Program-made: the position numbers and the translations under genes | The notes under the pieces: model-generated | Seen by the model: the letters and a program-made list of their open reading frames with translations, nothing else | What the model was told of the DNA's origin: nothing | Database searches by the model: none | From: a virus | Virus record (IMG/VR): IMGVR_UViG_3300028591_000123 | Span: 1-64,000 of that record | Strand: one strand, 5' to 3' | DNA: 64,000 nucleotides | Part shown: positions 25,615 through 64,000 of the stretch, one piece after another | Numbering within the stretch: the stretch's first letter is position 1 | How the letters are laid out: every line of letters starts with the position of its first letter

Positions 25615-25760
25615 AGTTGCTTGTGTTGATTTGATAACAGGGTTTCCAAATTCGTCCGTAGTCAGGAATGTGTTGTTTGGTTCAATAACGCTATCTTCAA
25701 TCTTCCATAAATCATCCCCTGATGTAACTGATACATCTTTGAGGTTATCGGTGATGATAT

Positions 25761-26948: not shown

Positions 26949-26957
26949 TTAATCACC

Positions 26958-27395: not shown

Positions 27396-27486
27396 TTTCA
27401 TCATCCTCGTTGTTGTCTTTTCTTTTTTCAATAACTTCTTTTAATGTAATATCAATTGAACCTATGTTAATGTCTTTTTTATTCAT
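27388..27486 (-). CDS. 32-aa micro-ORF
   Basis: MNKKDINIGSIDITLKEVIEKRKDNNEDDEND fills the gap and overlaps the next start. Confidence 0.4.
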   Translation of the reverse strand: MNKKDINIGSIDITLKEVIEKRKDNNEDDEND

Positions 27487-27488
27487 AT

Positions 27489-31466: not shown

Positions 31467-31478
31467 TCTTTCGCCTCT

Positions 31479-34940: not shown

Positions 34941-35785
34941 TATTCTTCAACCTCGTCTGTGTCTTGATATGCTGATAATGGAATCTCATTCTCTTCTTTC
35001 CATTTTGTGAACGTGCCGGTTTGAGGGTAACAATTCAATTGTCTATCAGTATAATATTCAGTATGTGTATCTACAAACAAATCTTCGGAGATATACTTTA
35101 ATGTGGATACGTATTTTTCATTCTCTAATAATGTTTCTGGAAATCCATTTCTCATATTGCGTTCTGAAAATACATAATTGTTATCAATATTGAATTCGTA
35201 GTCTTCATCATCATCTTCTTTTTTTGCATTCTGTAGGATATTCTTTTGAGTGTTTAATTTGCTAAGCATCAAGGATGTGGAATCCCATTCAGTATTTGTT
35301 GAATCCAATAATCCAATCACATTTATTCTGCTTAACTCCCCAACAATATCAATCTGTATGTTTTTCATTAATGGATCGACATCTCTTAATGGACTTATGT
35401 ATTCATGAAGAGATTCATCATCATTATGAATTCCCTCTTCATCTGTATCTTCATCATTATGAAGGATCAAATAATCCATATTATGCACCTCTTTTGGAAG
35501 AACATGCATAATTAATCCATTTGTTAAGTAATCACATCTTATATAAAACCAGCCTTTATAATATTCATACTTGAATATGTGATTGTCATTGTCGGTAAAC
35601 GCGATGTTTGAATAATCATCATTATATATGTTCGCAGATAAAACAGGTAAGCTATCTAAGCTAATTTTCAGATTCACAACAGATTGTATTTCCTCTGGAT
35701 CATGATTCTCATCCGTTTCAATTTTTATCACGAATTTTTGATGATATCTTTTTAAGTATTCAGTCACACTCGTCATTAATAACAC
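34940..35785 (-). CDS. hypothetical structural protein
   Basis: 281-aa acidic ORF overlapping both neighbours in the late operon. Confidence 0.6.
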   Translation of the reverse strand: MLLMTSVTEYLKRYHQKFVIKIETDENHDPEEIQSVVNLKISLDSLPVLSANIYNDDYSNIAFTDNDNHIFKYEYYKGWFYIRCDYLTNGLIMHVLPKEVHNMDYLILHNDEDTDEEGIHNDDESLHEYISPLRDVDPLMKNIQIDIVGELSRINVIGLLDSTNTEWDSTSLMLSKLNTQKNILQNAKKEDDDEDYEFNIDNNYVFSERNMRNGFPETLLENEKYVSTLKYISEDLFVDTHTEYYTDRQLNCYPQTGTFTKWKEENEIPLSAYQDTDEVEE

Positions 35786-42057: not shown

Positions 42058-43128
42058 CTATTTTTCTCTCGTTATTATACATAGGGCTTTTTGATTTCCC
42101 GGGGTATGTTTTGCATAATAATCCTGAGCAGCGTACTTTCGATCCTGCAGGTGGCCGAAATAACCACCATCAGATTTCCTATTACCTAATGAATTAAGAA
42201 CCCTTACGAATTTTGTGTTTATATTAATCTTATCTAACATTTCATAATGGCCGAAGATTGAATAATTGCTTCCGTAGTTCACACCACTATCTTGATAACC
42301 AATGTGCCATATTATAGCCGTATTTGGCTTGTCAATAAGTTTTCCAATGTTTTTCAGTTTCTCTTCCGTTGTCTTTCCCATATCGCTATAATATTTCCAT
42401 TGTATCTTAAAAACAGCGCCATATGTCTTTCCGCACCACATTATTCCGGATTCGATTCCAGGATGTCCCGTGCCCGCAGATGTCGTACCCATTTTGCTTG
42501 CTAAGAGAGATTCCTTGATTGTTATATTCAAAAGCTTTTTCATAGCCTGTTGAACAGCATTTGGACCGCAATTATAACTGGTGTTCTGTCCTAATCCTGC
42601 TTCTGAAGTGGTGAGATGAGGTTTTGATACATATATTCCATTAAATGTTTCCGCTTTTTTTGTGCTTGCGGAAGCTTTCTTTTTCAAATCATTTGAATTA
42701 AACATACAATAATTCGGCAAAACATTGTTTGTCAGATAAAAATTCCCAATCTTAGCGACACAATAACTGAATAATTCATAATCAATCTTATACCCTTTAT
42801 GAGATATATAAGCCGGAACTCTTGAGTTTGTCTCGCAATAATCAATAAATCGCTTGATCATATCAAGATAATCGTTTTTCATGATTTTCAGATTACTGGT
42901 TGAAGAGGAAAAGCTTATATTATATCTGTTCATGTTCTTCAAGGTCACATCATTTTGTTTTATATTATATATGACTTTTGATATTAGGTATGTTATTGTG
43001 TAATTATTATATTGTTTGCTGTTGATTGTGGAAAAATTTGGCAAAGTTTTGTTTTTTTCAATAAACACCTTAATCTCTTGTGATTCCTTTAATAAGTCTT
43101 TTTTTAAAATTTTAACCAAAAATCGCAT
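42058..43128 (-). CDS. endolysin: pseudomurein-binding repeats + C39-like cysteine peptidase (putative pseudomurein endoisopeptidase)
   Basis: PMBR-like segments (DYLDMIKRFIDYCETNSRVPAYI; YCVAKIGNFYLTNNVLPNYC); catalytic-like QNTSYNCGP, GHYE and LNSLG. Confidence 0.8.
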   Translation of the reverse strand: MRFLVKILKKDLLKESQEIKVFIEKNKTLPNFSTINSKQYNNYTITYLISKVIYNIKQNDVTLKNMNRYNISFSSSTSNLKIMKNDYLDMIKRFIDYCETNSRVPAYISHKGYKIDYELFSYCVAKIGNFYLTNNVLPNYCMFNSNDLKKKASASTKKAETFNGIYVSKPHLTTSEAGLGQNTSYNCGPNAVQQAMKKLLNITIKESLLASKMGTTSAGTGHPGIESGIMWCGKTYGAVFKIQWKYYSDMGKTTEEKLKNIGKLIDKPNTAIIWHIGYQDSGVNYGSNYSIFGHYEMLDKININTKFVRVLNSLGNRKSDGGYFGHLQDRKYAAQDYYAKHTPGNQKALCIITREK

Positions 43129-48416: not shown

Positions 48417-50381
48417 TTATCCTATCCATAACCAATAACCGCTGATGTTCACGGCGGAGTTTGTGTCGTTTATGCAACAAATTCGAAAGCTGCCTGCTTT
48501 ATTGTCATCTAAACGAGCTGTTCTGTGTATGGTATTATTATTGCAGGTAATATAAACATGACCCTTTCTGTCCTTGGGGATTCCGCTTTTAACATCATAA
48601 TATTTAGAATCTTTCGCACCAACCTTCTGTGAGAAGGATCCCATATATATGGAGAAGTTTCTCACATTTCCTAATCCAATCTGTGATTTAGTGACTGTAT
48701 GTGGATTGCTCTTGTTGTTAATATGGTTATTGACTTTGGTATTTAATGATGAATTAGAACTGCTTAAACTGTTTGTGGTGCTTGTTAAATTATCTATCGC
48801 ACTTTGTATCTCACCGAGGCTCTCGTTAATGCTTGAGATTTGGGAGTTAATACTGGTTATATTATACTCATCATCAGAGATTTGTCTGATGATTTGTTCT
48901 ATCGTCATTGAAGTTGCGTGGGTTACCGTTTGACCACCATTCAGCTTCTTTATCTTTGAATTGACATCATCTATCAATGTCTGCAATTCATCAAGTGACT
49001 CGGTCAGGATCTTATTTGATGGATATTTGTCGATGCTGTTGTTGTTTTCGTTGAATGATGCCAATGTTGTTTCCTTATTGGTTTTCTCTTCAAAAGTGGT
49101 TTGGAGATTGTTATATGGGATTAATCCAGTATCATTTTTTCCCTTGATGTAGTATAGGTTTGTGAATTCCTGCCATTCTCTATCATTGACGGCGAATTGT
49201 AATTTTGGATTGTCGCTTTCCTGTGTTTCCGGATCGACTCTGAATTTAAATCTTAACCCTGATGTTGTATATATCTTTGTCGGGTCGGCGTAATCATCAA
49301 ACGTGTTTATATCATCTCTTATTATGTAAACATAATGCCAGTTGTCTTTTAATTCGGCATCCAGGTTATCATATTCCTCTTGTGTTATAAGTATGAATTG
49401 AAGCCCGTTCACCATATCGGCGGAGAAGAATGTATTAGTATTGTATTGTGACTCTGAAACCCTTGATTCTAGGATGTATTTTCTATGATAACTTGTCTCC
49501 TCATCTTCCTCAATCTTCTTATATACTTCTATGTAGTCTTCGTTTGGAGTGCCGTCATCATTGACAGGTTGGGCATCCAGGAGATAATCCTCATCGATAT
49601 AGCGTGAGTTGAGAGTGAACAGGCAATATTCTGATGTTTCGTTGGTTTCCTCATCCAATAGTTCACATGAGATGTCGGGAACATTCGCAACAAACAAGCA
49701 TGTTCCATTATAATCCTGATACAATTCTACAACTTCTCCTTCTTCATCCGTGATGTTGGGATCATATATGACAGGAATCTTGTTGTAATAATGCACAAGG
49801 TTATTATTGACATCAACAGCCTCCACGGAATGATTGTTCAGGATTCTTTGAAGCTCGAGGGCATCCTCTGGATCTAATGCATTTGCCCATCTTGATTCTT
49901 CCTTGTTCACAAACACTTCATACTCATTCATGAATTCCCCAAAATTATACTCGCTCTCCTCGGCATGTCTTCCAAGAAGCTCCAATGCGTAATGAACATC
50001 ATTGATGTTTGTCAGGACGCTGTCGTTTGATATGGAATCATCCTTATACACATCGAATATGGAGCATTCCATATCAGACAATTTAACATCCACATCCCTG
50101 AGGAACTGACTGTTGATTGTCTTGTAATTGTTGATCTGAGTGCTTCCGATATACATTCCTGACTGCAGCACATTGAGATAGTAATCATCTTTTGTGATGA
50201 AATCGCTGGCATGATGTCCGTCCAGCATGTCGGCATCTATCTTTGAACCTTCCCCACCATATGCTATGATGAGGTCTAGGACGTACTGATACTGTTTTGT
50301 CAGGTTCTCCCTTGACAAGGCTTCGCCTATGTAATATTTCTGATTATCATTGTTCATGATGTTTATTTCTTCATTGCTCAT
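48417..50381 (-). CDS. tail fibre-related protein with long coiled coil
   Basis: IDADMLDGHHASDF, NHINNKSNPHTVTKSQIGLGNV, heptad region. Confidence 0.65.
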   Translation of the reverse strand: MSNEEINIMNNDNQKYYIGEALSRENLTKQYQYVLDLIIAYGGEGSKIDADMLDGHHASDFITKDDYYLNVLQSGMYIGSTQINNYKTINSQFLRDVDVKLSDMECSIFDVYKDDSISNDSVLTNINDVHYALELLGRHAEESEYNFGEFMNEYEVFVNKEESRWANALDPEDALELQRILNNHSVEAVDVNNNLVHYYNKIPVIYDPNITDEEGEVVELYQDYNGTCLFVANVPDISCELLDEETNETSEYCLFTLNSRYIDEDYLLDAQPVNDDGTPNEDYIEVYKKIEEDEETSYHRKYILESRVSESQYNTNTFFSADMVNGLQFILITQEEYDNLDAELKDNWHYVYIIRDDINTFDDYADPTKIYTTSGLRFKFRVDPETQESDNPKLQFAVNDREWQEFTNLYYIKGKNDTGLIPYNNLQTTFEEKTNKETTLASFNENNNSIDKYPSNKILTESLDELQTLIDDVNSKIKKLNGGQTVTHATSMTIEQIIRQISDDEYNITSINSQISSINESLGEIQSAIDNLTSTTNSLSSSNSSLNTKVNNHINNKSNPHTVTKSQIGLGNVRNFSIYMGSFSQKVGAKDSKYYDVKSGIPKDRKGHVYITCNNNTIHRTARLDDNKAGSFRICCINDTNSAVNISGYWLWIG

Positions 50382-50974
50382 TCTTCACCCTCTATTTTGG
50401 CTTTGAGTTTCATGTTTTCATCCTGTAGATCATTGATTTGAGTTTGAAGTCCGTCGATTGTTTCGTTGATGTTGTTTCCGTTGATGTTGACATTGGCAGA
50501 GTTCAGGTTGATGCTTTCCTCTGTTAATGATACATTTGTGCTTTCGTTTTTTAGGATGATGTTTTTGTAATCATTTGATGATAGATTGTTCTGGATTGTG
50601 ATGGTCCCTTCTTTTACTGATGTCGGGCTTTGTTTCAGGTTCTCGATCCTTTGGATGTCGTATTTTTTCTCCTTCTTGTTTACCGCGACATCGCATGTCA
50701 GTTTTTGCTTTGGATATAGAAACTTGTCCGTCTCCTTTCCCTCAGGCAGGACTCCATCGTATCCGCTGTATGTGCATGGATGAACCTGTCCATTGATCTC
50801 AACATACCATCCTTTTCCAAACAGCTTGCTCTTGTCTATCTTCTTCAATGTTCCCGTTTTTTCCTTTGTATCCTCATCCTGGTCGAAATGTCCTTTCTTA
50901 GTTTTTGTTCCGGCGAATTCCTGAAACCTGTCTCGGAATCTCTTATTTGTAGGACGATATGAACTTCTTACCAT
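50378..50974 (-). CDS. putative baseplate spike (gpV/gp5 OB-like) protein
   Basis: Directly after the hub genes; beta-rich, with repeat-like SINLNSANVNING and a C-terminal coil. Confidence 0.5.
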   Translation of the reverse strand: MVRSSYRPTNKRFRDRFQEFAGTKTKKGHFDQDEDTKEKTGTLKKIDKSKLFGKGWYVEINGQVHPCTYSGYDGVLPEGKETDKFLYPKQKLTCDVAVNKKEKKYDIQRIENLKQSPTSVKEGTITIQNNLSSNDYKNIILKNESTNVSLTEESINLNSANVNINGNNINETIDGLQTQINDLQDENMKLKAKIEGEE

Positions 50975-51028: not shown

Positions 51029-52663
51029 TTATGAGTGGTTTCCATACCAAGGGTTCTGATAACCAGGGTATGAACTAGGGTTGTTCATGTCTGACGGAGG
51101 AGCTCTTGATACATGGTAGTGTCCCGCTTTCATCGCTGATGTCGGGGTCAAGCCGCTCGGCATTTCGCTCTGTTCGGGTGGGAATATCCATTCTCCCCCC
51201 TGTTTCACTTGTATGACATGGTGAGTTCCACTCACACCGCTTCCGGCTCCGACAACATCCCTTGCCGGGACGTTGCATTTGAAGTTAAGAACATAATACA
51301 GCCATGCCGTAGATGAGTAGCAATCCCATTGTTTCCTGGACGTGTTTTCTCCGAAAACCTTATAAGCTTCGGCGGGATCATGGGGGTTGCTCATTGAATA
51401 ATTATGGGACCATACTGAGTTTTTCGCGATATCCCAATACTTGTTCCAGCAATCGCTGCCGACATTCCCTGAGCTGCTTTCAGGGGAGTATCCGCCTGTC
51501 CCAGTCTCCGGGACCTCCGGGTTGTCAGGGCTTTCCGGGGAGAACTCAAGCTCCAGGTCAACCTGTATGGGGCCTTCATCCCATTCAACTCCGACTCCTT
51601 TAACGAAATAGAATTCCTGATTCTTTCCGGTGTTATGAAGCATGTGAGGATTGTCCAAGGTTACTATGTCTCCCACATCTATGTCTCCATCATGAAGAAG
51701 AGACACTCCCATTGTCATTGAAAATTCTCTGACATGGGCGGCGAGGTATGTCTTGGCTTTCCTTATGGCCTGTGTCTTGCTGAGCTTTGGCTCTTTATAT
51801 GTGATGGGGTGTTCTCCATATACGGCGACAAGGTCATTGTATTGCTCCTTGACAACCCCGTTTGAGTATTTGACATATACTGTGTTATAGAATCCAAACT
51901 GGTTCACATCAACCTCGTATGAGCCGTCTTCTATCTGCCATAGTTTAATGTCTTCGCTTGATGAAACCTTTTTCTTGTCTCTTATCTCCTGGGCTTCATT
52001 ATAGATTGATTCAAAATCGGTAACAACGACCATGTTTCTCTTGCATAAGAAGAGAATATCCAATCCGTTGCAGATATCTCCTATTATGTCCTGAAAGGTT
52101 CTTTCACCACTCAGCATTGGATTCATCAGGGCGGAATCGCCTTGCTGGGTTTCGTAATCGGATGATGAACCATTGGTCTGTCCACCCAGTACAGAGAGAA
52201 GGTTCTGAGCTAATTCGTCAAATGATGATCCGCAGGCATAGTCGCATTCGGGGTATTTCTGCATGACCTCGGCTGTTGTCATTCCGATGAGTTCGGCTAC
52301 GTATGAACGAGGAGCCACACCATCCGCAACCCAGTTGAGCTTCGCCGTTGTCGCTCCGCTGCATGTGCATGTGTTTGTTTCTATCCATCCTTGAAGGGCG
52401 AAGTAACAATGTGAGACATGGTAGTATCCTTTGCTGATTCCATCATGGAAATCCTTATATGTTTGCAGGTCAGCACCGTTCACTAGCATCACAGCTACTT
52501 TTCCTGAAGTGCTTGATGACAGGCAGGTATTCTGCAAGGGACTTGGTCCAACCGGTACTGTTTTAACCGTGTGTCCGGCATCTCTTAAAACCTTGGCCAT
52601 TTTCTGCAATGTAACCCTGTCTTCGGATATGTTGTTGCTGTCGCACCCCATTATGATATCCAT
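51029..52663 (-). CDS. hub C-half paralogue 3: unknown N-terminal alpha/beta domain + hub C-half + Cys/His transglutaminase-like domain
   Basis: TFQDIIGDICNGLDILFLCKRNM...GFYNTVYVKY; C-terminal WDCYSSTAWLYY...GTHHVIQV. Confidence 0.7.
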   Translation of the reverse strand: MDIIMGCDSNNISEDRVTLQKMAKVLRDAGHTVKTVPVGPSPLQNTCLSSSTSGKVAVMLVNGADLQTYKDFHDGISKGYYHVSHCYFALQGWIETNTCTCSGATTAKLNWVADGVAPRSYVAELIGMTTAEVMQKYPECDYACGSSFDELAQNLLSVLGGQTNGSSSDYETQQGDSALMNPMLSGERTFQDIIGDICNGLDILFLCKRNMVVVTDFESIYNEAQEIRDKKKVSSSEDIKLWQIEDGSYEVDVNQFGFYNTVYVKYSNGVVKEQYNDLVAVYGEHPITYKEPKLSKTQAIRKAKTYLAAHVREFSMTMGVSLLHDGDIDVGDIVTLDNPHMLHNTGKNQEFYFVKGVGVEWDEGPIQVDLELEFSPESPDNPEVPETGTGGYSPESSSGNVGSDCWNKYWDIAKNSVWSHNYSMSNPHDPAEAYKVFGENTSRKQWDCYSSTAWLYYVLNFKCNVPARDVVGAGSGVSGTHHVIQVKQGGEWIFPPEQSEMPSGLTPTSAMKAGHYHVSRAPPSDMNNPSSYPGYQNPWYGNHS

Positions 52664-54013
52664 CTATAAGCACCCCTTGGCTTTTCTTATCGCATTTATG
52701 ACCGCGTTCTGGTTTTTGTAATGTGTTATCGGACCGAGGGTGTTGACTACAAGGGCAATGTTTCTGTATGCGCATGGGGTTTTCATCAGGGTCCCGACGA
52801 TCCTGGCTTTTTCTGTTGTCCGGTTTCTCGGGTAAGCGTTTTGAATGACTTTTGATATCTCGGTCCAGACCTTGCTGTTGCCTGTGTCCTCGGTTGTCTC
52901 TGTTGTTGGAACATCTTCTGCCTCACCGGTTGTTCCGGAATCATCTGAAGAGCCTGAAGACCCATTACCGCCTCCACTACCCCCTGATGATGAAGAAGTA
53001 GTGTTTGATGATGTTCCTGATTCATCCCGCTCAGGAGCTTCCGGGCTGTAGGATAATTCCAAATCACATGTGATCGGGCCTTCATCCCATTCGATGTTTA
53101 ATCCTTTGACAAAATAAAACTCGGGAAGCTCGCCTTCCTGTTTCTTTATCTCATTCTTCAATGTCAATGGGTTCTCCAATGTGACAATATCCCCTATGTC
53201 TATGCCTCCATCATGAAGGATGCTTGCCTTGATTCCCATTCCGAAATCTCTCATATGGGCGGCGAGGTACATCTTGGCTTTTTTCTGAGCCTGGGTTTTA
53301 CTCAGCTTCTTTTCCTTGTATGTCTTCGGAACCTCGCCATACACTCTGACAAGATCGGGGAAGGATTCCTTGACAACCCCGTTCCTGTATTGAACATAAA
53401 CCGTGTTGAAGAATCCGTATTCATTGACATCAAGGTCGTAAGTTCCGTCCTGAAGCTGCCATAATGCTATGTCTTCGGCGCTGTTTTTTTGTTTCTCCCT
53501 CAGGTATGCGGCTTCCGCATATAATGTTTCCACATCGGTCACGACAATCATGTTTCTCTTGCATAGAAATTGCACGTCGATCCCGTTGCAGATTTCACCA
53601 ATAAGATCCTTGAATGTTTTCTCACCACTTAAAACAGGGTTGTAGGCGGCTTCTGATGATGAAGATGATGAAGATGAAGAACCACCGGCGCTTACCGGGT
53701 TCATCTCATTGGATGCTGGGGTCAGTGTTCCTCTTGACGGGGTCCACTTATCCTCTCCGTTCACACAATCATAATCGGCATCGCAAGCACTGCATGTCAA
53801 TTCTCCCTCGGCGGTTTTCTTGGGATTGAATAATAATGTTCCTTCCTTTCCACATAATGGGCATTTGTTTTTCCAGTAATGTTCTGTTAATTCGTATGAA
53901 TATCCATCCCTGCCGGGGTATGACCATGTGTGGATGATTTTCTTATCCTGTGAGTATTCGGCTTTAACTCCGTCCAATGCCATGATATCACCCGAAGAGA
54001 TTTGATAATGCAT
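52664..54013 (-). CDS. hub C-half paralogue 2: N-terminal Zn-finger domain + hub C-half + helical module (likely start ATG 53983)
   Basis: CPLC...CSAC...DC; TFKDLIGEICNGIDVQFLCKRNM...GFFNTVYVQY. Confidence 0.7.
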   Translation of the reverse strand: MHYQISSGDIMALDGVKAEYSQDKKIIHTWSYPGRDGYSYELTEHYWKNKCPLCGKEGTLLFNPKKTAEGELTCSACDADYDCVNGEDKWTPSRGTLTPASNEMNPVSAGGSSSSSSSSSEAAYNPVLSGEKTFKDLIGEICNGIDVQFLCKRNMIVVTDVETLYAEAAYLREKQKNSAEDIALWQLQDGTYDLDVNEYGFFNTVYVQYRNGVVKESFPDLVRVYGEVPKTYKEKKLSKTQAQKKAKMYLAAHMRDFGMGIKASILHDGGIDIGDIVTLENPLTLKNEIKKQEGELPEFYFVKGLNIEWDEGPITCDLELSYSPEAPERDESGTSSNTTSSSSGGSGGGNGSSGSSDDSGTTGEAEDVPTTETTEDTGNSKVWTEISKVIQNAYPRNRTTEKARIVGTLMKTPCAYRNIALVVNTLGPITHYKNQNAVINAIRKAKGCL

Positions 54014-55235
54014 TCAATAAACCATTTCCGCCACTTGATGATGAGCTTGTTGGTTCTGCTCCCAATGATTTCGGCCACCAGGATTTATTTGTTTTCGCTC
54101 CTTGTTTAAAAGTTTTCAAGTCCTTTAACAATAGATTTTTATCAGTACGTCCTTTATATATTCGATTTAGATAATATGTTGGAGATGGTCTGCCAACAGC
54201 CTTTGATGGTGAAACCCCAGAATACCATATTCTGTAGATTGTGGCGACAGAATTCAAGGCTGTAGGATTCTTAGCCCAGTACCTTGCATTGTAAGCACTC
54301 TTCAACCATTTCTTCACATTCTCCTGACCAGCATTTCCACCAGTTGGTTGACCATTTGCTGATGGAGAATAAGTGCTCGTGTTCTGTGTTGACTCCTGAG
54401 CTCCTGATTGGGCGGCTCCTCCGTATGTTGTGCCGTAGACTGACGCTCCGCTTCCGCTGTAAGTGTTTCCTTTTGCGATCTTGCTCATTGTGGGGGTGAC
54501 TTTACTATATTTCAAGGTGTAATTTATATGATAAAGGTTATTCAGTTTATCTTCGTCCAGTTTGTTCTGCAAGGTATACTTGTTTATAGTGTCGCTTGGG
54601 TTGGTCTTTTTGATCCTGTCAATGAGGTCAGGGATTTCAGTAATCTCCTCTCCATTCATTGTCACATTGCCGTTCTCATCAAAACCAATCTCTTTTAATC
54701 TTTTTTTCGCATTAGGGGATATGACGTACTTGTCAATCTTCAAGGCTTCAAATATCAACTTCATGACAGTATACCCATCCTTGTTCACCACATTGTCATT
54801 GACAAAAGCTGATGATGCGTTCTGCTCGAATTTCCATCCATAATTCTGCAATGAAACAACAAGCTCGTATCCATCTTGTCTGACTTCACGGCATCTTCCT
54901 ACAAATAATATCTTTGGAGCTCCCTTGTTTGCCCCATATATTACACATGTAGCTCTTAAAGGTTCCCAGTACTCCATCAGGTCGGAGTCGAAAGGACATC
55001 TCAGCTCCGCCGTTCCCATGAATTCAGACACCTGCACGTCAATGCTTAATGAATGAAAGTAGGTATGTGTCTGCTTATCAGTATTCGTCCATACATTGAC
55101 TTGGGTTTTGAAGTTCGGACTCTTATATGATGTATTATCATCAATCCCAAGCTTTCTGTTGTTGTTGGGTTTTAGGAAACCCGCTTTCTTTAATTTAATG
55201 TAAGCTTCAGCTGTATTCTGATCTTTTTCTGACAT
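53988..55235 (-). CDS. hub N-half paralogue 2 (GPD/gp27-like N-terminal barrel)
   Basis: DLMEYWEP...CVIYG...LFVGRCREVRQDGYELVVSLQNYGWK. Confidence 0.7.
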   Translation of the reverse strand: MSEKDQNTAEAYIKLKKAGFLKPNNNRKLGIDDNTSYKSPNFKTQVNVWTNTDKQTHTYFHSLSIDVQVSEFMGTAELRCPFDSDLMEYWEPLRATCVIYGANKGAPKILFVGRCREVRQDGYELVVSLQNYGWKFEQNASSAFVNDNVVNKDGYTVMKLIFEALKIDKYVISPNAKKRLKEIGFDENGNVTMNGEEITEIPDLIDRIKKTNPSDTINKYTLQNKLDEDKLNNLYHINYTLKYSKVTPTMSKIAKGNTYSGSGASVYGTTYGGAAQSGAQESTQNTSTYSPSANGQPTGGNAGQENVKKWLKSAYNARYWAKNPTALNSVATIYRIWYSGVSPSKAVGRPSPTYYLNRIYKGRTDKNLLLKDLKTFKQGAKTNKSWWPKSLGAEPTSSSSSGGNGLLNALSNLFG

Positions 55236-55247
55236 CTCTTATCACCT

Positions 55248-56678
55248 CTAGCAAACTTCCGAAACACTTGAAAGTTCTTTGCAATTTGATTTTGAAACCA
55301 TGTTCTTTCCGCCCCATCCGGCATAACGGCTTACGCCATCTACAATTACCCATCCGTTCCCATATTTGGCTTCTGGGTAATAGTGTCCCGCGGTATGTCC
55401 TGTTGTGAATGTAACTGAGAAACAATGATGGAGTTTGTTTGGAACTCCAACCGCTGTGAATAAATCACATAATGCCTTGGCTGTATCTGTACAATTAGCG
55501 GATTTGCTGCTAAGAACTTGTTCTGTACTTTGTCTACTACATTCATAATGTCCATAATGCATATTTGATTTCCACCAGGCCCATATTTTCTGGACTTTTT
55601 CATCATTAGTGGTGGCGTTGCCTACTATCTTTTTGGCGAAATCAGCCACGGTGCCTGATGGGTTTCCCGCCATCTGGCCACCACCACCGCTGCTTCCGCT
55701 GCTGTTATTAGTATAATATCCGCCACCGGTTTCCGGGACTTCCGGATTGTCGGGGTTTTCGGGGCCGTATCTCAGGTCGAGGTCCGCTACGAATGTTTTT
55801 TCACTAGCGTTCCAGTTTACTGACAAGCCGTATATGTAGTAAAGGTTTTCCGTCATTGTGAGGGGGTTTCTTAATTTTATGTATTGTCCGACCGCAAGCT
55901 TGCCACTATAGAGTGCGGATACTTGAACGGTCATGTTAAAATCTCTAATGTTCGCACTCAAGTATGCTTCTGCTTTCACCCTCGCTTGAGTATATGAAAG
56001 GGTCTTGTCGGAATAGGTTGCAGAAACCTCGCCATATATATTAACAAGGTCTTCATTGCATACTTTGACAGTTCCATTCCTGTAATGCAGGATGACAGTA
56101 TTTATCATTCCCGCCTGATTGACATCAACATCAAGGCTTCCATCTTCCTGCATCCAATAATCAATCACTATCGGCTTGTCAGGAAAGCCGGTTTCCTTGT
56201 ACCCTCCGGCGAATAATGTGTTAAAGGATACAAAATATACTGTATCATTAACTATGTAATAATGCGCATCAATGGCGGATGCTATGCTGTGAAGAACATC
56301 ATCAAAGGTTAAATCTTCATTATCAGCCTTGTCCGCTGAGGAATCATCGGAATCGGATGAGCCGCTTCCGGAAGAACCACCTCCTGATGATTCTGAGTCA
56401 CCGCTTAACAATGAATCTTCATCAGTAGCGTCAGGTTCTTCAAGGTCATCGGAGGCGGATGTTTCGCATCCTTTTATCCTCATGATATCCCTTATCAGAG
56501 CATTCTGGTTCTTATAATGGGAGAAAGGACCGCCCATCTCATTAGTTATGAGGGCTATGTTTCTCCATGCGCACCGTGCTCCTGCCAGTCTTTTTGAGAA
56601 GCTGTATAATTGTTTCTTGCTGTATGTTGGATAGGCCCATCTTAAATGGGTGTAGATTGAGTCGAAAACCTGTGTCAT
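55248..56678 (-). CDS. hub C-half paralogue 1 with C-terminal transglutaminase-like (PeiW/C71-type) peptidase
   Basis: TFDDVLHSIASAIDAHYYIV...NTVILHY; triad-like ANCTD, GHYY, IVDG. Confidence 0.75.
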   Translation of the reverse strand: MTQVFDSIYTHLRWAYPTYSKKQLYSFSKRLAGARCAWRNIALITNEMGGPFSHYKNQNALIRDIMRIKGCETSASDDLEEPDATDEDSLLSGDSESSGGGSSGSGSSDSDDSSADKADNEDLTFDDVLHSIASAIDAHYYIVNDTVYFVSFNTLFAGGYKETGFPDKPIVIDYWMQEDGSLDVDVNQAGMINTVILHYRNGTVKVCNEDLVNIYGEVSATYSDKTLSYTQARVKAEAYLSANIRDFNMTVQVSALYSGKLAVGQYIKLRNPLTMTENLYYIYGLSVNWNASEKTFVADLDLRYGPENPDNPEVPETGGGYYTNNSSGSSGGGGQMAGNPSGTVADFAKKIVGNATTNDEKVQKIWAWWKSNMHYGHYECSRQSTEQVLSSKSANCTDTAKALCDLFTAVGVPNKLHHCFSVTFTTGHTAGHYYPEAKYGNGWVIVDGVSRYAGWGGKNMVSKSNCKELSSVSEVC

Positions 56679-57829
56679 ATGTGAACCCCGCTTACGTATC
56701 TTTGACTTTCAATTGTTCTTTGAATCTTTCTCCTGTTCTGGGCGGGAGTGCCGTAATATGTTTGTTTCTTATAAGCCTTGTCTATCCATGCCTGCTTGCC
56801 CGTACCACTATGGGATGTCGCATTGCCGTACCAGGCTTCCCATATCTGTTTGTAGTAGGCTTTGCTGTACGCCTTTGGTTTCGGGGCCGGTGTTGTCTCG
56901 GAGGATGTTGAATCAGATGACGGTACATCAGATGATGAATCTCCTGATGATTCTGATTCCTGTGAAGCCTTCGCGGCGGCTTTCGCCTTCGCCTTGGCTT
57001 CGGATTTCATCTTCTTCTGAAGGCTCTTGTAGGCGCTTGATTTCTTGTCTATCCCGGTCACATAATATTCCGACAGATTCTCCAAGTCATTCTTTGATGT
57101 TATCCTTGAAGCCGTTTTCAAATTAACATTGTTATTGATCGTCCATGAGTTGCGGATTGATGAAGGATAATAATAATTGCTTGACCCCACAACCTGAGTC
57201 AGCTTGTAGAGTTCTCTGTTATTGAATTCCCTGCTGACTTCCGTGTTTTCCTTTGTATATTTCGCATCAGCCACAGCCTGGTCTATATCGCTTCCTTTCA
57301 TGTTTTTGATTACCTGATTAAGATCGGGAATTGACTCGACCGTTGTGCCTCCTATGGCGACAGAGCCTCCGCTTTCATATACATACTTGTTCAGGTCGGT
57401 TATTCCATCCAGATTCACATGGTATTTGACATTAGCCATTCCTAATAATGTGTATACAACATCCTTGACGGGTTTGCCATCAAGATAATCCAGGACGGAA
57501 GCTGGACACAACTGCTTGAGCTTCCATCCGATATTCTCACATGTGACCTGTATCTCATACCCCGTGTGCATGATTTCCCTGACTCTCCCGGAGAACAGTT
57601 TCTCCCGGTCATATGTTCCGCCATAAATGGCGCATGACATCCGACCTGGCTCCCAATAAGCCATCAAGTCCGGATCATAAGGCATGTGCAGGACCGCTGT
57701 TGTCACGATATCGTTCTTGTCGCAATCAAGGTCGAAAGCCGTGATGTAATCATGGATCTTGCCGTCAGGGTATGTTTCAACTCTCAACACTTCTGAGAGT
57801 CCATTGTAATCATATCTTTTAGTTGACAT
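56675..57829 (-). CDS. hub N-half paralogue 1 (GPD/gp27-like N-terminal barrel)
   Basis: DLMAYWEP...CAIYG...LFSGRVREIMHTGYEIQVTCENIGWK. Confidence 0.7.
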   Translation of the reverse strand: MSTKRYDYNGLSEVLRVETYPDGKIHDYITAFDLDCDKNDIVTTAVLHMPYDPDLMAYWEPGRMSCAIYGGTYDREKLFSGRVREIMHTGYEIQVTCENIGWKLKQLCPASVLDYLDGKPVKDVVYTLLGMANVKYHVNLDGITDLNKYVYESGGSVAIGGTTVESIPDLNQVIKNMKGSDIDQAVADAKYTKENTEVSREFNNRELYKLTQVVGSSNYYYPSSIRNSWTINNNVNLKTASRITSKNDLENLSEYYVTGIDKKSSAYKSLQKKMKSEAKAKAKAAAKASQESESSGDSSSDVPSSDSTSSETTPAPKPKAYSKAYYKQIWEAWYGNATSHSGTGKQAWIDKAYKKQTYYGTPAQNRRKIQRTIESQRYVSGVHI

Positions 57830-57830
57830 T

Positions 57831-58523
57831 TTAGAATCCCCAGTTGTTTACTTCCCTGATGGTGATGCTCCATGCGGATTCCTCTTCTCCCTCTCCTATG
57901 CTGTAATCGCATTCGGTCATGTATCCTACAACGATTGTAGGGAATAATGGAGAGATGACTGTCAATGGCCTGCCCTGCAGGTTGTCGAAGAATGATTTTC
58001 TCAACTCCACAAACTTGTCATCATAATCCTCTGGATAAACCCATAGGAATGAGAACTCCTCATCAGTATTGTAATGGAAGTCCTCGACGTGTATGTCAAC
58101 ATCCTGATTGTTGTTCTCATATGATAACTTTCCCGTCACAGAGCTGAGCCTTTGATGGACAAGAACTTCGAGCTGAACCTCGGCGAACCTGTCACAAGCC
58201 TTTTCAACAAGTATCATTCCCTGAGCGGAATCAAATTCCTCATAATCCTTCCCATGCGGCGTGAATTCAACATTCCGGACATTGAAATACATCGCATGAG
58301 GAGGTTCTACCTTCTTGTACTTATCCTTGGTCACATCATCCTTTGACACTATGCTGTTTGTTGTGTTTCCCGTGGTCTTGTCGGTGTATGAAGACCCCAG
58401 GTCCTCTGAAGATGAGGTCTTCTTGTTGTTGTTCTTCTGATTGTAATAGTTCTGCAGGTTCTCCGCGTCAGTATATCCGGGGATTATCAAGACAGAACCT
58501 TTTGTTAATGAAAACTCTGTCAT
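57831..58523 (-). CDS. putative tail-tube initiator / distal tail protein
   Basis: Between tape-measure-like and hub genes; GRPLTVISPLFP...GYMTECDY...WSITIREV. Confidence 0.55.
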   Translation of the reverse strand: MTEFSLTKGSVLIIPGYTDAENLQNYYNQKNNNKKTSSSEDLGSSYTDKTTGNTTNSIVSKDDVTKDKYKKVEPPHAMYFNVRNVEFTPHGKDYEEFDSAQGMILVEKACDRFAEVQLEVLVHQRLSSVTGKLSYENNNQDVDIHVEDFHYNTDEEFSFLWVYPEDYDDKFVELRKSFFDNLQGRPLTVISPLFPTIVVGYMTECDYSIGEGEEESAWSITIREVNNWGF

Positions 58524-58539
58524 AATATCTTATACCTCA

Positions 58540-61500
58540 TTAGTTGTTGTTTGTCTGGGTTGTTCCGGTAGGGAGGTTGTCCCCGTCGGTAGCTCCGACT
58601 GGGTCGTACTCCGCCTCCTCATCCTGTATGATCTTAGGATCGGATCTTTCCTGAACATCAATGATGGCGTTCTTAACCGCACTCTCAATATTCTTTGCCT
58701 TGTCGGCCGTGTTGATTTTGATGTCACGGAGCTTGAAGTTCTTATTCATGACCGTGAAGCTCGGAGCCTTTTTGAACAGGTTCACATTGAGTTTTGGTAT
58801 GGCTTTCTTGTTACAGATAGCCAATTGAACATAACGCTGCCTGTTGTTGTTATCATAATCTTTGCCACCACCGCCTTTTCCGGAGCCACCTGTCTCATCA
58901 TCAGCAGCATCTTCGGCATCCATATTGCTTTCATTGATTGTGTTTGTTAAGTTCATCAAGTATTTAATAACATCTGGATTATTCTTAACAACTTCATCAT
59001 TAAGTTTCATGATATCTGTTGCGTTATAATCTGAATAACCACTTGATGGAAAACCAGGGATATTTGATGCAAGTCTTTTCATGAAATTTCCAATAGTTGG
59101 ACTCTCATATTCCTTAGCTATGTCAGTATACTTTTGGTGGGTTTTCCAATATGAACCATTTTCTACTCCATATTTTTTCAAATATTCTTCAGAACTTTTT
59201 TGAGCTTTCTTCATAGCTTCAGCTGGAGTATCTCCGGCGTTCAATCTTTCGTAATATTTTGCCTGATACGCTTGAGTTTGATATTTGGTATCCATTGCCT
59301 TTACAGCATTTTTATACTCATCGCTGCTTTTATTTCCGTCTTTAATTATTTTGTTTAATTCTCCAACACTCTCTACTGGAGTATCAGATACGGCATTATA
59401 AGAATCAACGGCTGCTTCATTCGCTGTACTGACAATAACTTGACTTAATTGTTGACTAATAACAGCTAAACCTTGGTTCATTGCCTGCTCAACACTAACA
59501 CTTGATCCAGTATTAGAGTGAATACCGCTGCTGGTAGCTAATTGAGAGTATAATCCTTGTGTTTGATTAATTAATTCAGGTTTAACTTGTGTTTCAGCAA
59601 CTTGATATAAATCGTTTAAAGTATGTAACATTACTAATTGTTGGGCCGCGATTTTACTAATACCTAAACGCTGACCAAGATTAGCGAATTTCTTATCAAT
59701 GTTTTGAATATTTTTTAGAACTAATCGACCATTTTTGAATTCAAATCTAAAGTTCTTACGTTCAAAGCGGTTTAATTGTTTATCATATTGTTTTCCAAGT
59801 TTCGCTAATTGAGTTGCTGAGTATCCTCCATTGTGAGTACCAATATCATTCCAATAACTATTATATTGAGGATATAATCCCTTATTTCCTCCAAAGATTG
59901 TTGATATGTCATTTCCGCCAACATTCCTTTTATCAAATGACGCCGCTAACTTTTCAAAATCTGTTTCCAAATCCTCAGCGTTTTTAATACGAGTAGTAAA
60001 CTGCAATCCATTTTCAGATGATTGAGCAATATCTTCAAGATATTCCTCTCCTTTATCTGTGAGTCCAAATTTTGTTTTCCAAGCATTAATGTCAAGTATA
60101 TCTCCTAAACCATATTCATCTTTAGAATTCTTAATACCGCTACCTTCATACCATTCCGTGAAATCAGCTTGTGTTCCGTAATGTCCTAATTGTCCGGTAT
60201 CATCTTCAACATTAGCTTCATTTCTTAATGCCGCGGTCATTTGCAATTGTGATGTGTACAATAATCGAGTATTTGCTTCAAGAGCGGTTAAATCTTTATT
60301 GAGCTGTTCTGATTCAGTTAACTCGAGATTCTCATCCGTTAAGAGTCTGAGATCCTGCATTGTAACATCTTTATCCCGACCTTCTTTCAAAGCTTCTTCG
60401 ATTGCTGTTTCCTTATCATCTTCACTAACATTGGAGAAGTTTTCATCAGCTCGTTCTTTGCTGGTTAGGAAATTTGATTCAGCTTGTGAATATCTCTCCT
60501 GAGCCTCGGACGTTTCTGTTTGGATTTTTGTGATTCTTTCAGATTCCTTTTCAACGACTGCGGAATAGGCTTGCATAACACCTTGGAAGATAGTCATTGC
60601 GGCCATCATTGGTCCGCCCATAAGATTGGTTACTGATCCAATAGCTCCTCCTAGTTTTCCGAGAGCTCCTGTTGAGTCCTTTATTCTTTCACCGAAGCCT
60701 CTGGTTTGTACTTGACCATCCTTGTCAGTATAAGTGGATGGGGCGATACCAAGACGTGCCTTAAATCTTTGGAAAGGACTTAGTCCTGACATATACTCTT
60801 TCATCAATATATCTTTTCCAGCACTATCAGGTAATGCTCTAAGTTGTTCAAATGATAAACTACCTTTACCTGGTCCATATTTAGCGTTCATTTGTTCTGC
60901 GTGTCTTTTATTATTTTCGGCAATATCATCCTGATATTTTTTAACCTTGTTAGCTTGTTTTTCATTCAGCTTATCTAATCGTACAGCTCTTTCCTCTGCC
61001 GTACTTTCAACACCAAACAACTGATCCAAACCAAGAAGAGGGTCTTCTAAATTCTTACCATCAACTTGTTTTCTTCGCCATTTTGAAACAGCTTCCGGAT
61101 CACGATAAACAGGTCCATAAGGACGTACAAAAGGTGGTAGTTCAAATTCATCCCTAAATGGTGTCAAATCCGCATTCGCAAGATTAGAAAGAAAATCATC
61201 ATTTAAATTATCAAGTAAAACAACATCTCCAGTTCCAAAGAATCTTCCACCCGCATACGTATACTCACCACTTGCATTTTGCAATATTTTCTCACGTTTA
61301 GAAGCTTTATACTCTTCACTATTGAAATACTCATCATTAATTTTATTCATATCATCAGGATTCAAGAATCTGCCTTCACTCAATATTCTTTCCAAAGCTG
61401 ATAATTGCTGAGATTCTATTTGCTTAATCTCTTCCAATTTTTCCTCAAACTTCAACATGTTAGTTATTGTTCCGAATTGCTTCTGACCTTCTTCGGTTAG

Positions 61501-63999
61501 GAAATCATCAAAACCTGGTAAATTTGGAGTATCAGCCTGACGAGCATAAACACCTTGTTTGATATTGCGTCCAAATAATTCCTGTTCTTCTACACTAGCT
61601 TCTTTCCACCATTCTACAAACTTGTCATGATCAAAGAATCCCTTTTGTGCGCTTAACAATTCATTTTCCGCCAGCATCTTGAATGGGTAACCCCTTACAC
61701 TTTCAGGGGTATCTCCACGCCCTTCATGGATTTTCATTCTACGATAAGGATTTCTCGTTTCATCCAATTCATCAATAAGTGCTTTAACGGTATGAACCGG
61801 AGCGATACCCTTCTCTATATTATCATCGAATTGACTTAATAATCTGGCGATATTTAGATTGTCATGAAGAACTCCTTTTTCTGATACAAATTTGTTTATG
61901 ACATCATCTTCAACATGGAACGCTCTGAACCAGTTGATCAATTCATCATAATTCTTTGCATAGAAACGGGAATAGGCTTCCTGTTGTTCTCTTAATGTAC
62001 CATTAACAATCTTGTCCATATAATAAGCATGGGATTTCTCTTGTTGAGCCTTATTACGATCACTTAACCCTTCTATTGTTTTTGCCATGTTTTCAACTTG
62101 ATTTGGTTCTGGAACGGTGAATACTCCTTTTTCAACTTCATCATTAAGGAGTGAACCCTGACTGAATGAAGGAGTAACGTCTCCTATTGTTGTTATTTTT
62201 GGTTCATCAAGTTCAGGCATATTAGGATATCTTTCCTTCATTGCAAGAATTGTTTTTCTTGATTTATCTATATCCCTAAATTGACCATCCCTATTTATTG
62301 TAGGAGTGAGACCAAGATAATTACCATCTTCATCATAACTATGATAATAACCCAATTCACTATTCGCATGAATACGTTTATCCTGATCTTTTATGATTGC
62401 AGCATCTTCTTCCTTAATCTGTTCTCTAAATGCAATCATTCGTTCATAATATCTTCTAATAAACTCTTCCCGTTCTTTAACTCGCTTGTTGAATTCTTCA
62501 ACAATTGCCGGATCAGCCCAGTCTTCATTATCCAAACCAAAGAAACTTCGTCTTCTGCCGTCTATATCAATTTTAAATAACTCGTCAAATTCGTCATTCA
62601 ATCTTTGAAGTTCTTCTGTTTGATATCTTAAATCCGTTCTTCCATCAGTTCGAGCTATAATGCTTGTACTATACAATAAATCTTCCATACGGGCGTGAGT
62701 GACACGATATGTGTCAGCCACAACTTTAGCGGCCATAACTTCATTAGTCAATCCCTCGGTTATATTATAAATAGGGTTGCTGAGGTTACCTTGTGTCTTT
62801 TCAAGACGAGGCATTGGAATAGCTCCCTCAGGCAAGCTGGCGTCAGAATCCTTAAGAGCCTCCATAACCTGCATTATGCCTGCCATTCTAATTGGCACAG
62901 CTCCCATTCCATGGAAGCCCTTCGCTCCAATATTGCTGTGTAATCCACCAACAATTTTTGTCGGATCCGCAACACCATTTCCATCTAATTCCATTCCGAA
63001 TTGTTTGCCAATCCAATTAATAAATTGATGAGCATCATAATCATTGATTGAATTTCTTCTTAATTCCTCAAAAAGATCTTCAACTCCCGCGAAAACCTCG
63101 TCTGGTGCTAAATCTCGAACCCTTGACGCCATTGTTTCGATGCTTTCTTCTTTAAGGATTCCGGCACTATCCCATGCTGACGGACCCCTTTGTGTTCCTT
63201 CTCCTGATAAAATATAATCCATTGTTGACTGAGCCATTTTACCATTATCAACACGTTCCTGAAGACTTTGTCTGATCACAGCCAAATCTTCTTCGTAAAG
63301 AGGATTAGGGTTCAATGTTTCACTAGCAGACCTGTTTAATTCAGCATAACTGAAAGCGGCTTTCCCTTGTCTGATATCTGCGGTTGCAGCGTCAATACCT
63401 TTGATCCGAGATTCCAGTTCTTCCAACTGGATCCTATCGTTTTCATCAATTTGAGCATCGCTTTCAATTTTCGCCGCCAAAGCGTTTTTCTTTTCCATTA
63501 ATAATTGTCTGCGTTTATCCAGATTAGCTAATGCTCCTTGCGTACCATTCATTATTTCATATTGCTTATTAAGTGACTCCGCAGCCAGCATCTGTAATAA
63601 CTGAAGGCTTCTTGCATCCTTAAAAGCGGCTGGTGGAATAGGATTTGATTGCTCTGCAACAACCCTGGCACGTTGTGGATTCTCGCGAGTATCCTTAGCC
63701 AACATCGTATTATACTCGTCCATTTGATTTCTATGAATACCCTTCAGAGTATCTTTATCAATGGACGGTCTAGTATATTCCAAATTGTTATCTTCATATA
63801 GTATTTTCTCAGCTGTATCGGCATTCAATGTTTCTAATAAAGGTGGTGTTTCCTGTCCAATGATAGTGTTTACAGTAGGAGTTGTATGAGCTGTTTCACC
63901 ATGTAAGGAAGCTTGATACATAACTCTCATACTATCCTCGAAAGCCGCTCTCTCCAAAGGATTGTTTCTCTGATGAACAATATCACTAACAGAAACAAC
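58540..63999 (-). CDS. tape-measure-like giant protein (5'-partial; frame open to the window edge)
   Basis: More than 1800 aa, helical, with GALGKLGGAIGSVTNLMGGPMMAAMTIF; canonical position before Dit/hub; no stop between 63957 and 63999. Confidence 0.7.
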   Translation of the reverse strand, partial: VVSVSDIVHQRNNPLERAAFEDSMRVMYQASLHGETAHTTPTVNTIIGQETPPLLETLNADTAEKILYEDNNLEYTRPSIDKDTLKGIHRNQMDEYNTMLAKDTRENPQRARVVAEQSNPIPPAAFKDARSLQLLQMLAAESLNKQYEIMNGTQGALANLDKRRQLLMEKKNALAAKIESDAQIDENDRIQLEELESRIKGIDAATADIRQGKAAFSYAELNRSASETLNPNPLYEEDLAVIRQSLQERVDNGKMAQSTMDYILSGEGTQRGPSAWDSAGILKEESIETMASRVRDLAPDEVFAGVEDLFEELRRNSINDYDAHQFINWIGKQFGMELDGNGVADPTKIVGGLHSNIGAKGFHGMGAVPIRMAGIMQVMEALKDSDASLPEGAIPMPRLEKTQGNLSNPIYNITEGLTNEVMAAKVVADTYRVTHARMEDLLYSTSIIARTDGRTDLRYQTEELQRLNDEFDELFKIDIDGRRRSFFGLDNEDWADPAIVEEFNKRVKEREEFIRRYYERMIAFREQIKEEDAAIIKDQDKRIHANSELGYYHSYDEDGNYLGLTPTINRDGQFRDIDKSRKTILAMKERYPNMPELDEPKITTIGDVTPSFSQGSLLNDEVEKGVFTVPEPNQVENMAKTIEGLSDRNKAQQEKSHAYYMDKIVNGTLREQQEAYSRFYAKNYDELINWFRAFHVEDDVINKFVSEKGVLHDNLNIARLLSQFDDNIEKGIAPVHTVKALIDELDETRNPYRRMKIHEGRGDTPESVRGYPFKMLAENELLSAQKGFFDHDKFVEWWKEASVEEQELFGRNIKQGVYARQADTPNLPGFDDFLTEEGQKQFGTITNMLKFEEKLEEIKQIESQQLSALERILSEGRFLNPDDMNKINDEYFNSEEYKASKREKILQNASGEYTYAGGRFFGTGDVVLLDNLNDDFLSNLANADLTPFRDEFELPPFVRPYGPVYRDPEAVSKWRRKQVDGKNLEDPLLGLDQLFGVESTAEERAVRLDKLNEKQANKVKKYQDDIAENNKRHAEQMNAKYGPGKGSLSFEQLRALPDSAGKDILMKEYMSGLSPFQRFKARLGIAPSTYTDKDGQVQTRGFGERIKDSTGALGKLGGAIGSVTNLMGGPMMAAMTIFQGVMQAYSAVVEKESERITKIQTETSEAQERYSQAESNFLTSKERADENFSNVSEDDKETAIEEALKEGRDKDVTMQDLRLLTDENLELTESEQLNKDLTALEANTRLLYTSQLQMTAALRNEANVEDDTGQLGHYGTQADFTEWYEGSGIKNSKDEYGLGDILDINAWKTKFGLTDKGEEYLEDIAQSSENGLQFTTRIKNAEDLETDFEKLAASFDKRNVGGNDISTIFGGNKGLYPQYNSYWNDIGTHNGGYSATQLAKLGKQYDKQLNRFERKNFRFEFKNGRLVLKNIQNIDKKFANLGQRLGISKIAAQQLVMLHTLNDLYQVAETQVKPELINQTQGLYSQLATSSGIHSNTGSSVSVEQAMNQGLAVISQQLSQVIVSTANEAAVDSYNAVSDTPVESVGELNKIIKDGNKSSDEYKNAVKAMDTKYQTQAYQAKYYERLNAGDTPAEAMKKAQKSSEEYLKKYGVENGSYWKTHQKYTDIAKEYESPTIGNFMKRLASNIPGFPSSGYSDYNATDIMKLNDEVVKNNPDVIKYLMNLTNTINESNMDAEDAADDETGGSGKGGGGKDYDNNNRQRYVQLAICNKKAIPKLNVNLFKKAPSFTVMNKNFKLRDIKINTADKAKNIESAVKNAIIDVQERSDPKIIQDEEAEYDPVGATDGDNLPTGTTQTNNN

Positions 64000-64000
64000 T

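Follow-up and report, generated by a model that had tools for sequence, protein, structure and literature searches.

Evidence for a baseplate hub spread over five polypeptides in a virus most likely infecting methane-producing archaea

The DNA analysed here, called the window, is a stretch of 64,000 nucleotides (nt), positions 1-64,000 of IMG/VR record IMGVR_UViG_3300028591_000123 (114,461 bp, estimated to be 76% complete). The record most likely represents a large contractile-tailed virus of methane-producing gut archaea. Five adjacent genes on the minus strand (51029-57829; order N1, C1, N2, C2, C3) probably encode the central baseplate hub of the contractile tail, which would be spread over separate polypeptides and restored by the rejoining of N and C parts. 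That the N and C proteins are the two halves of a hub of the gp27 / Mu gp44 type is supported by fold matches, by homologues in which N is followed by C on one chain, and by a predicted complex of N2 with C3. A sequence-only reading of the window had proposed these halves, and in this respect it is borne out.

Gene classes, hub fold and predicted pairing

The five open reading frames (ORFs) lie where that reading had placed them, and BLASTP recovers its two paralogue classes. N1 and N2 are 32% identical over 195 amino acids (aa; E 9e-29), and the C proteins 37% (C1/C2, E 6e-41), 38% (C1/C3, E 3e-45) and 60% (C2/C3, E 2e-99). Shared motifs that it had quoted can be seen in the pairwise alignments, namely DLMxYWEP, CxIYG, LFxGRxRE, GYE, NxGWK and IPDL for N1/N2 and DLVxxYGE, LSxTQA, YLxA and PExP for the C proteins, and 13-14 invariant columns of the core domains are kept across paralogues. 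Profile searches of the whole 114-kb record returned two N domains, three C cores and no more. The five ORFs are all intact, and a Shine-Dalgarno-like purine-rich motif (GGGG / GAGGTGA / GGTGA type) stands 5-10 nt before the ATG of each. Whereas hubs of the gp27, Mu gp44 and P2 gpD kind are single polypeptides, N and C are here separate genes with their own start signals. The block is tightly packed, with an ATGA overlap of the N1 stop and the C1 start and gaps of 0-12 nt, and is apparently co-translated. C2 most probably starts at Met11 (53983), which is preceded by a GGTGA motif; with this start, it does not overlap N2.

AlphaFold2 models were built for N2 and C3, with predicted local distance difference test (pLDDT) scores of 73 for N2 and 81 for C3, from two alignments, one of 96 and one of 120 metagenomic homologues. 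In Foldseek, the C3 model matched at least 30 hub chains (E 6e-7 to 1e-3, probability 1.0), and the N2 model likewise gave hub matches at probability 1.0 (E 7e-5 to 1e-3). The matches of the two models include Mu gp44, MuSo2, 3d37, diffocin, pyocin R2, VgrG, T5 pb3, lambda gpJ and the tail of Haloferax tailed virus 1 (HFTV1). VIA-align placed N2 residues 42-194 on hub residues ~3-163, with Z 10.2, a root-mean-square deviation (rmsd) of 2.9 Å and 132 aligned residues for 3d37, Z 9.9 for HFTV1 and Z 8.0-8.3 for Mu gp44. The aligned part is the first tube-like barrel together with the domain below it, corresponding to T4 domains I-II and to hdI-hdII in the four-domain scheme (hdI-hdIV) of the T5 baseplate hub protein pb3 (PMC10038345).

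For the C half, the flavodoxin-like domain dominated the VIA-align result of the complete C3 model, leaving little range information for the core. The C3 core (residues 217-378) aligned with lambda gpJ residues 362-594 (Z 8.8, rmsd 9.3 Å, 139 residues), a range that takes in the HDIV insertion, since this insertion occupies residues 483-569 (PMC10721106). C3 contains the second barrel and its associated domain (T4 domains III-IV), with the domain correspondence only roughly fixed. C1 and C2 have weak PHROG matches, at positions 252-342 of 536 in a baseplate hub family and 245-405 of 654 in a tail protein family.

There are two hub lineages, A (N1 and C1) and B (N2 with C2 and C3). The isolated-phage collection searched yielded a single homologue, from Methanobacterium virus PhiF1, whose genome includes a sheath gene. 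This protein, ORF35 (598 aa), is separated from the tape measure by ORF34 and stands two genes ahead of baseplate J. On a single chain it carries an N domain, a C2-like zinc ribbon, a C core (33-39% identity) and a C3-like C-terminal Cys-His domain. N1 is 41% identical to ORF35 residues 12-103, and the zinc ribbon and core of C2 align with residues 200-474 (33% identity, E 7e-39); in the fused protein P0345, the zinc ribbon sits between N and C. Of 104 protein clusters in the C1 lineage, 96 consist of N-C fusions (494-831 aa), and the six C-only clusters are those closest to C1 (at least 67% identity). In fused hub A proteins, the C part shares 50-59% identity with the C1 core. N2-type homologues were N-only in all 120 checked, and C2/C3-type homologues C-only in all 93.

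The pairing of halves was examined by complex prediction for one pair, N2 with C3, with a favourable outcome. N2 (40-240) and C3 (170-390) gave an ipSAE of 0.88, compared with 0.00 for the best of three controls; 58 of 80 solved complexes attain that mark, as do 2 of 110 mismatched pairs. Runs agreed in at least 93% of contacts, and partner pLDDT was at least 74. N2 and the C3 core are predicted to bind through an interface of ~260 contacts, including strand-strand pairing between N2 63-67 and C3 357-361. A caveat is that the pair is similar to solved single-chain hubs, so that known structures may account for the score, which supports binding without proving it. At the predicted N2 interface, C2 and C3 are 69% identical, compared with 64% elsewhere; hubs A and B are 30-32% identical at the interface versus 35-37% elsewhere, i.e. 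they have diverged about equally in both. We infer that N and C associate in the other pairs as well.

The N2 barrel (43-138) also matches tail tube and Hcp proteins (Z 7-8), and this would suit a model in which the N proteins are independent tube-like ring proteins, of the distal-tail or tube-initiator type, rather than hub halves. However, the best N2 matches span the barrel plus the second domain (130-150 aligned hub residues), PhiF1 and ~96 clusters have N and C on one covalent chain, the predicted contacts with C3 are numerous (~260) and involve strand pairing, and the tube-initiator position is already occupied by another gene, g230. We consider independent rings the least probable of the explanations weighed here, and very improbable in itself.

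Layouts and history in related viruses

ORFs of ~40 related loci were classed with hidden Markov models for the N domain, the C core and the transglutaminase-like domain, and whole-record searches were made in addition (Table 1).

Table 1. Hub gene layouts among related loci. N, front half; C, back-half core; T, transglutaminase-like domain; Z, zinc ribbon; F, flavodoxin-like domain; m, 70-residue module. Hyphens join modules of one gene; slashes separate genes.
Layout	Loci
One fused hub	PhiF1; G005
One split pair, N / F-C-T	G002, G003
Split pair plus fused N-Z-C	G006
Fused hub A (N-C-T), then N / C-T / F-C-Z or N / C / F-C-T (commonest layout)	L006, L010, L011, L012, L038, L040, L042, L052, several partial contigs
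Fused hub A at tape measure; C, C, N 41 kb away	G001, probably L005 (same C, C, N order)
N / m-C-T / N / Z-C-(m or T) / F-C-T	Window, L007, L027, L031, L032, L028 in part

The five-gene layout of the window is found in an independent IMG/VR contig (L007; 95-100% identity) and in the diverged relatives L027, L031 and L032, which rules out an assembly error. A complement of two N and three C units, counting a fused hub A as one of each, is found again in lineages with no more than 50-60% identity, with hub A either fused or split, and T, Z and m switch places among C paralogues between lineages. This comparison of copy number and order agrees with the earlier claim that the halves have been multiplied and combine with different accessory modules, which are shuffled among relatives. 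A rule of either one or three C subunits was entertained and rejected, as G006, with a split pair and one fused hub, has two.

One could suppose that the extra copies are redundant or decaying, or are artefacts of assembly or frameshifting, and that a single N/C pair is functional. In L035 (JAEEGL011097194.1), the third C gene is present as two ORFs, one flavodoxin-like (201 aa) and the other comprising core and zinc ribbon (357 aa), which reflects either a further fission or a frameshift or sequencing error; C3 of the window, moreover, is without the aligned catalytic Asp. Yet all five ORFs of the window are intact, and the set is conserved down to ~50% identity with its frames intact. The N1-C1 junction is identical in L007, the split is kept in L027, L028, L031 and L032, and the invariant core columns persist across paralogues. 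Redundancy or artefact is thus highly improbable.

Hub A is one polypeptide in most relatives and split only in the subclade of the window, where the split-A layout recurs in the four loci just named; hub B is split in every relative sampled. In an N tree (FastTree), N1 and the fused-A sequences are separate from N2. The C-core tree recovers the A clade (support 82/95), and in it C2 and C3 are not resolved as orthologous clades but group by virus lineage, which suggests gene conversion or repeated duplication. A single-chain ancestor with N, zinc ribbon, C and transglutaminase-like domains (the PhiF1 layout) was duplicated into A and B. Hub B split early, and its C half was duplicated again; hub A split recently, in this subclade only, together with insertion of the 70-residue module. 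Fission of the hub has therefore occurred at least twice independently. The earlier statement that this virus had cut its hub is too narrow, since the split of N1-C1 is specific to the subclade and that of N2 and its C partners is common to all sampled relatives of that lineage. One relative, G002, is a complete genome (121,120 bp, with terminal repeats) that has exactly one N and one C gene, a hub B pair that is its only hub, so a split hub suffices alone. The family is narrow, with 101 clusters at 50% identity matching the C-core profile among 1.84 billion representative proteins.

Recoding or readthrough to fuse N and C was considered and rejected, as their relative reading frames differ among relatives. 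In L009, N and C are in the same frame with one stop codon between them (11180-11182); because the frames differ in other relatives, we regard this case as coincidence and not readthrough.

In G001, a block of ~6 genes, homologues of plus-strand genes of the window, lies between hub A and g198. On contig C2 of G001 (L019/L020, 84-103 kb and 38-57 kb), the C, C, N set adjoins homologues of window genes 20491-27431, which include a protein of >1500 aa without a family match.

Modules, wall-related domains and neighbouring genes

The hub genes and their modules are listed in Table 2 with neighbouring features. The N1 tail (residues 211-384) is of low complexity and variable, and N1-only orthologues in L027, L028, L031 and L032 are 229-321 aa long, so the tail is not conserved; the idea that it serves as docking partner of the N-terminal module of C1 was dropped for this reason. 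That 70-residue module (C1 residues 2-71) is 40% identical to the C-terminus of C2, has the motif (A/C)(W/Y)RNIAL..N..GP..HYKNQNA and matched no family. Every split-A C1 orthologue carries it, and a check of ten fused hub A proteins did not detect it; its insertion thus coincides with the fission of hub A. Residues 1-161 of C3 adopt a flavodoxin/receiver/B12-binding fold in the AlphaFold2 model (Z ~10.9, VIA-align), and the F-C-T layout of C3 is that of the only C subunit in one-pair genomes.

Table 2. Coordinates of the hub genes, their modules and other features in the window.
Feature	Position	Strand	Description
N1	56675..57829	-	Front half of hub A; hub domain residues ~15-210
C1	55248..56678	-	Back half of hub A; 70-aa module 56454-56678, acidic/Ser linker, C core 55725-56324, transglutaminase-like Cys-His-Asp domain 55338-55643
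N2	53988..55235	-	Front half of hub B; hub domain residues 42-235 (54516-55118), C-terminal helical bundle ~300-395 (54051-54338)
C2	52664..54013	-	Back half, hub B type; zinc-ribbon domain 53699-53926, C core 53009-53638, 70-aa module 52670-52876
C3	51029..52663	-	Back half, hub B type; flavodoxin/CheY-like domain 52181-52663, C core 51494-52138, transglutaminase-like Cys-His domain 51044-51466
Tape measure	58540..64000	-	C-terminal part of giant gene; ORF open at 5' end, extends beyond the window; upstream neighbour of hub cluster
g230	57831..58523	-	Conserved gene between tape measure and hub genes
g198	50378..50974	-	Conserved gene closing the hub cluster
654-aa protein	48417..50381	-	Follows g198
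356-aa protein	42058..43128	-	Two pseudomurein-binding repeats
905-aa protein	35760..38477	-	Structural-module protein with staphylococcal-nuclease domain
Large downstream proteins	20491..34940		No function from Pfam or PHROGs

C1 residues 346-447 match Pfam Transglut_core (57.3 bits where the cutoff is 23; E 2.2e-15); the transglutaminase-like domain of C3 has no Pfam match. In a protein atlas, the C3 C-terminal domain gave structure matches with template modelling (TM) scores of 0.52-0.60, and Pei and Transglut_core clusters came up at a feature score of 0.86, with Pei ranked first; these are leads only. The domain also aligns with those of C1 and PhiF1. In a six-sequence MAFFT alignment made without structures, C396, H432 and D447 of C1 fall in conserved Cys/His/Asp columns, of which Cys and His are invariant in both C1 and C3 (C448 and H481 in the latter). 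PF12386 (Peptidase_C71) gave no match at E <= 0.1, and tblastn against phage records found PhiF1 only and no PeiP- or PeiW-encoding phage. We take Pei / peptidase C71 to be related to the transglutaminase-like superfamily. Contrary to the expectation that wall hydrolases would lie between the two halves, the wall-enzyme-like domains are C-terminal, and it is the zinc ribbon that occupies the cut point in fused forms. A stand-alone protein of 278-285 aa with a transglutaminase-like domain follows the g198 and g654 homologues in L011, L038, L040 and L052; no counterpart was noted at that position in the window.

The 356-aa protein, encoded in the baseplate/fibre module with baseplate J and Gp10_C, carries its two repeats as a Pfam PMBR match (E 3.5e-14) and is a candidate wall-binding virion protein. 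Given these pseudomurein-binding repeats and the link to PhiF1, the host is most likely a pseudomurein-walled methanogen. A scan of genome contigs for integrated proviruses found only viral contigs binned into bacterial metagenome-assembled genomes (MAGs). Contigs of this virus group (L011, L012 and L013; 43-108 kb) occur in MAGs labelled Clostridiales, Alistipes finegoldii and 'uncultured bacterium', a placement that is probably mis-binning.

The hub genes sit just downstream of the tape measure in a contractile-tail module, and the window and nearly all relatives keep the order tape measure, g230, hub gene(s), g198. The tape measure's C-terminus is 59-83% identical to proteins that precede the hub genes in relatives and carry Pfam PhageMin_Tail. 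Homologues of g230 stand directly before the hub gene(s) in every relative examined, and those of g198 come after the last hub gene in nearly all (exception: G001). For both g230 and g198, there was no match in Pfam and no sequence match in the PDB, and PHROGs gives no function; by position, g230 is a candidate tube-initiator or hub-accessory protein and g198 a candidate central spike (Mu gp45 / P2 gpV). Further downstream are baseplate J, a sheath-initiator-like gene and Gp10_C. The 654-aa protein matches several PHROG tail-fibre/tail-collar families at residues ~460-620 (best E 2e-10); relatives have a conserved version of its N-terminus in the same place after the g198 homologue. In the 905-aa protein, the nuclease domain spans residues 687-786 (Pfam SNase, E 5.6e-8).

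Assembly of the hub and comparison with known systems

In the assembly that we favour, the N proteins would supply the first tube-like beta-barrel and the domain under it, and the C proteins the rest of the hub fold along with the add-on domains. One N and one C would associate non-covalently into a single hub protomer, as N1-C1, N2-C2 or N2-C3. All five products would be virion parts, and the hub would carry several different C subunits at once. The two Pei-like cysteine-peptidase domains on C subunits would cut pseudomurein locally as the tube tip advances, in the manner proposed for the 'cleaver' domain of the phage 812 hub.

Whether subunits are mixed within one particle is close to an even question, and we lean slightly towards mixing. 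One symmetry-broken ring of three protomers (N1-C1, N2-C2, N2-C3) is a tentative version of it, and two stacked hub rings are, if anything, more doubtful. If true, the mixed ring would put exactly one copy of each C subunit, with its payload, into every particle and would explain why two N and three C units are kept across diverged lineages with hub A fused or split; five polypeptides would then make up the phage hub as a programmed heterotrimer. Alternatively, each particle could be homotypic, with A, N2-C2 or N2-C3 hubs, such that the population mixes tips with different wall-acting modules. Serratia VgrG1 and VgrG2, for example, make separate functional assemblies, which give distinct versions of one type VI secretion system, and form no heterotrimers (PMC4924876). 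The interfaces of A and B have also diverged, and the complete genome with a B pair only indicates that one hub type is enough per particle. On the other hand, nothing in the block of five genes, which is tightly packed and apparently co-translated, points to a switch, and N2 must serve both C2 and C3, which makes mixed B rings hard to avoid. Homotypic particles are thus an unlikely arrangement, though a serious competitor to the mixed hub.

A hub shared among all five polypeptides has to be weighed against several contrary points. None of the five proteins matches a Pfam hub family (Phage_GPD and related) at E <= 0.1, and single-sequence and profile searches of PDB chains gave no match. Comparison with known hubs, which the sequence-only reading had put forward as a check, succeeded with Foldseek, in which the N2 and C3 models matched hubs including Mu gp44, but not at the profile level, where hhalign found no significant similarity between the N and C profiles and Mu gp44 (probability ~1% or less). 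As both models are multi-domain, their Foldseek TM-scores are low (0.13-0.27). The C core is placed in the hub by one weak alignment (the rmsd of 9.3 Å noted above), the weak PHROG matches and the domain order of fused homologues. The complex prediction covers a 1:1 N2-C3 pair rather than a trimer or ring, and C3 has Pro in the aligned Asp column of the six-sequence alignment. In G001, hub A remains at the tape measure with the B set 41 kb away, so hub B need not occupy the canonical hub locus. Finally, the five products are known here from their genes, from which their presence in the virion is deduced, and the host is likewise a deduction.

In this virus group, the hub is seen to tolerate fission at the junction of its two pseudo-repeats, and it can multiply to up to three protomer-equivalents with interchangeable payload domains. 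To our knowledge, wherever the baseplates of contractile tails or related injection systems have been characterised structurally, the hub is a homotrimer of single chains and ranks among the best-conserved components. These genes offer a natural system for studying how non-identical protomers are accommodated in hub symmetry, tape-measure docking and spike binding, and a route to how tail tips are equipped to cross pseudomurein, for which we know of very few virion enzymes. For annotation, hundreds of 'hypothetical' metagenome proteins, some of them in bacterial MAGs, can be labelled as archaeal-virus hub halves.

Mu gp44, P2 gpD and T4 gp27, along with the N-terminal modules of VgrG and siphophage Tal/BHP, have the same fold as both halves. 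Also shared are the position downstream of the tape measure and upstream of wedge genes, and the N-then-C order seen in the fused relatives here. The hub of the window differs in being made of two polypeptides, in two to three paralogous sets that fall outside the Pfam hub families. PhiF1 ORF35 has the same N, zinc ribbon, C core and transglutaminase-like domains and belongs to a myovirus of a pseudomurein-walled host, but it is one chain in a single copy, at 30-41% identity.

Lambda is a non-contractile siphophage with, as far as we know, a single hub set and no multiplication of paralogues. Its hub is likewise naturally carried by separate polypeptides, with HDI in gpL and HDII-IV in gpJ (PMC10721106). 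In lambda, only the first barrel precedes the cut, and gpJ extends into the central fibre; here, the cut falls after the barrel plus the second domain, before the insertion point of the zinc ribbon, and the fission is therefore not of the lambda type. The closest functional analogue is gp110, the hub of Staphylococcus phage 812, in which channel domains I-IV are followed by a C-terminal cysteine-peptidase-type 'cleaver', which is proposed to break down the wall at the tip of the tube as the tail contracts (PMC13433997). Unlike the present case, gp110 is one polypeptide that forms a homotrimer, and its enzyme has a CHAP fold directed at bacterial peptidoglycan, whereas the domains here are transglutaminase-like and the wall pseudomurein.

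Type VI secretion systems also hold several gp27-like VgrG paralogues with varied effector domains, in combinatorial or alternative use, and V. cholerae VgrGs reportedly form heterotrimers. Use of such paralogues, with their different effector domains, as alternatives has been described (PMC4924876). VgrGs differ in that they are single chains fused to a gp5-like spike, and in that they are cellular weapons and not virion parts.

The earlier reading's remark that it knew of no such described system needs dividing. A split hub as such is known from lambda gpL/gpJ (PMC10721106), but the full combination of features was not found in the literature, where our searches returned no hub described as split after the second domain, twice independently, with three protomer-equivalents in an archaeal myovirus. 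The class of system itself is not new; the form it takes here is of clear interest to phage structural biology.

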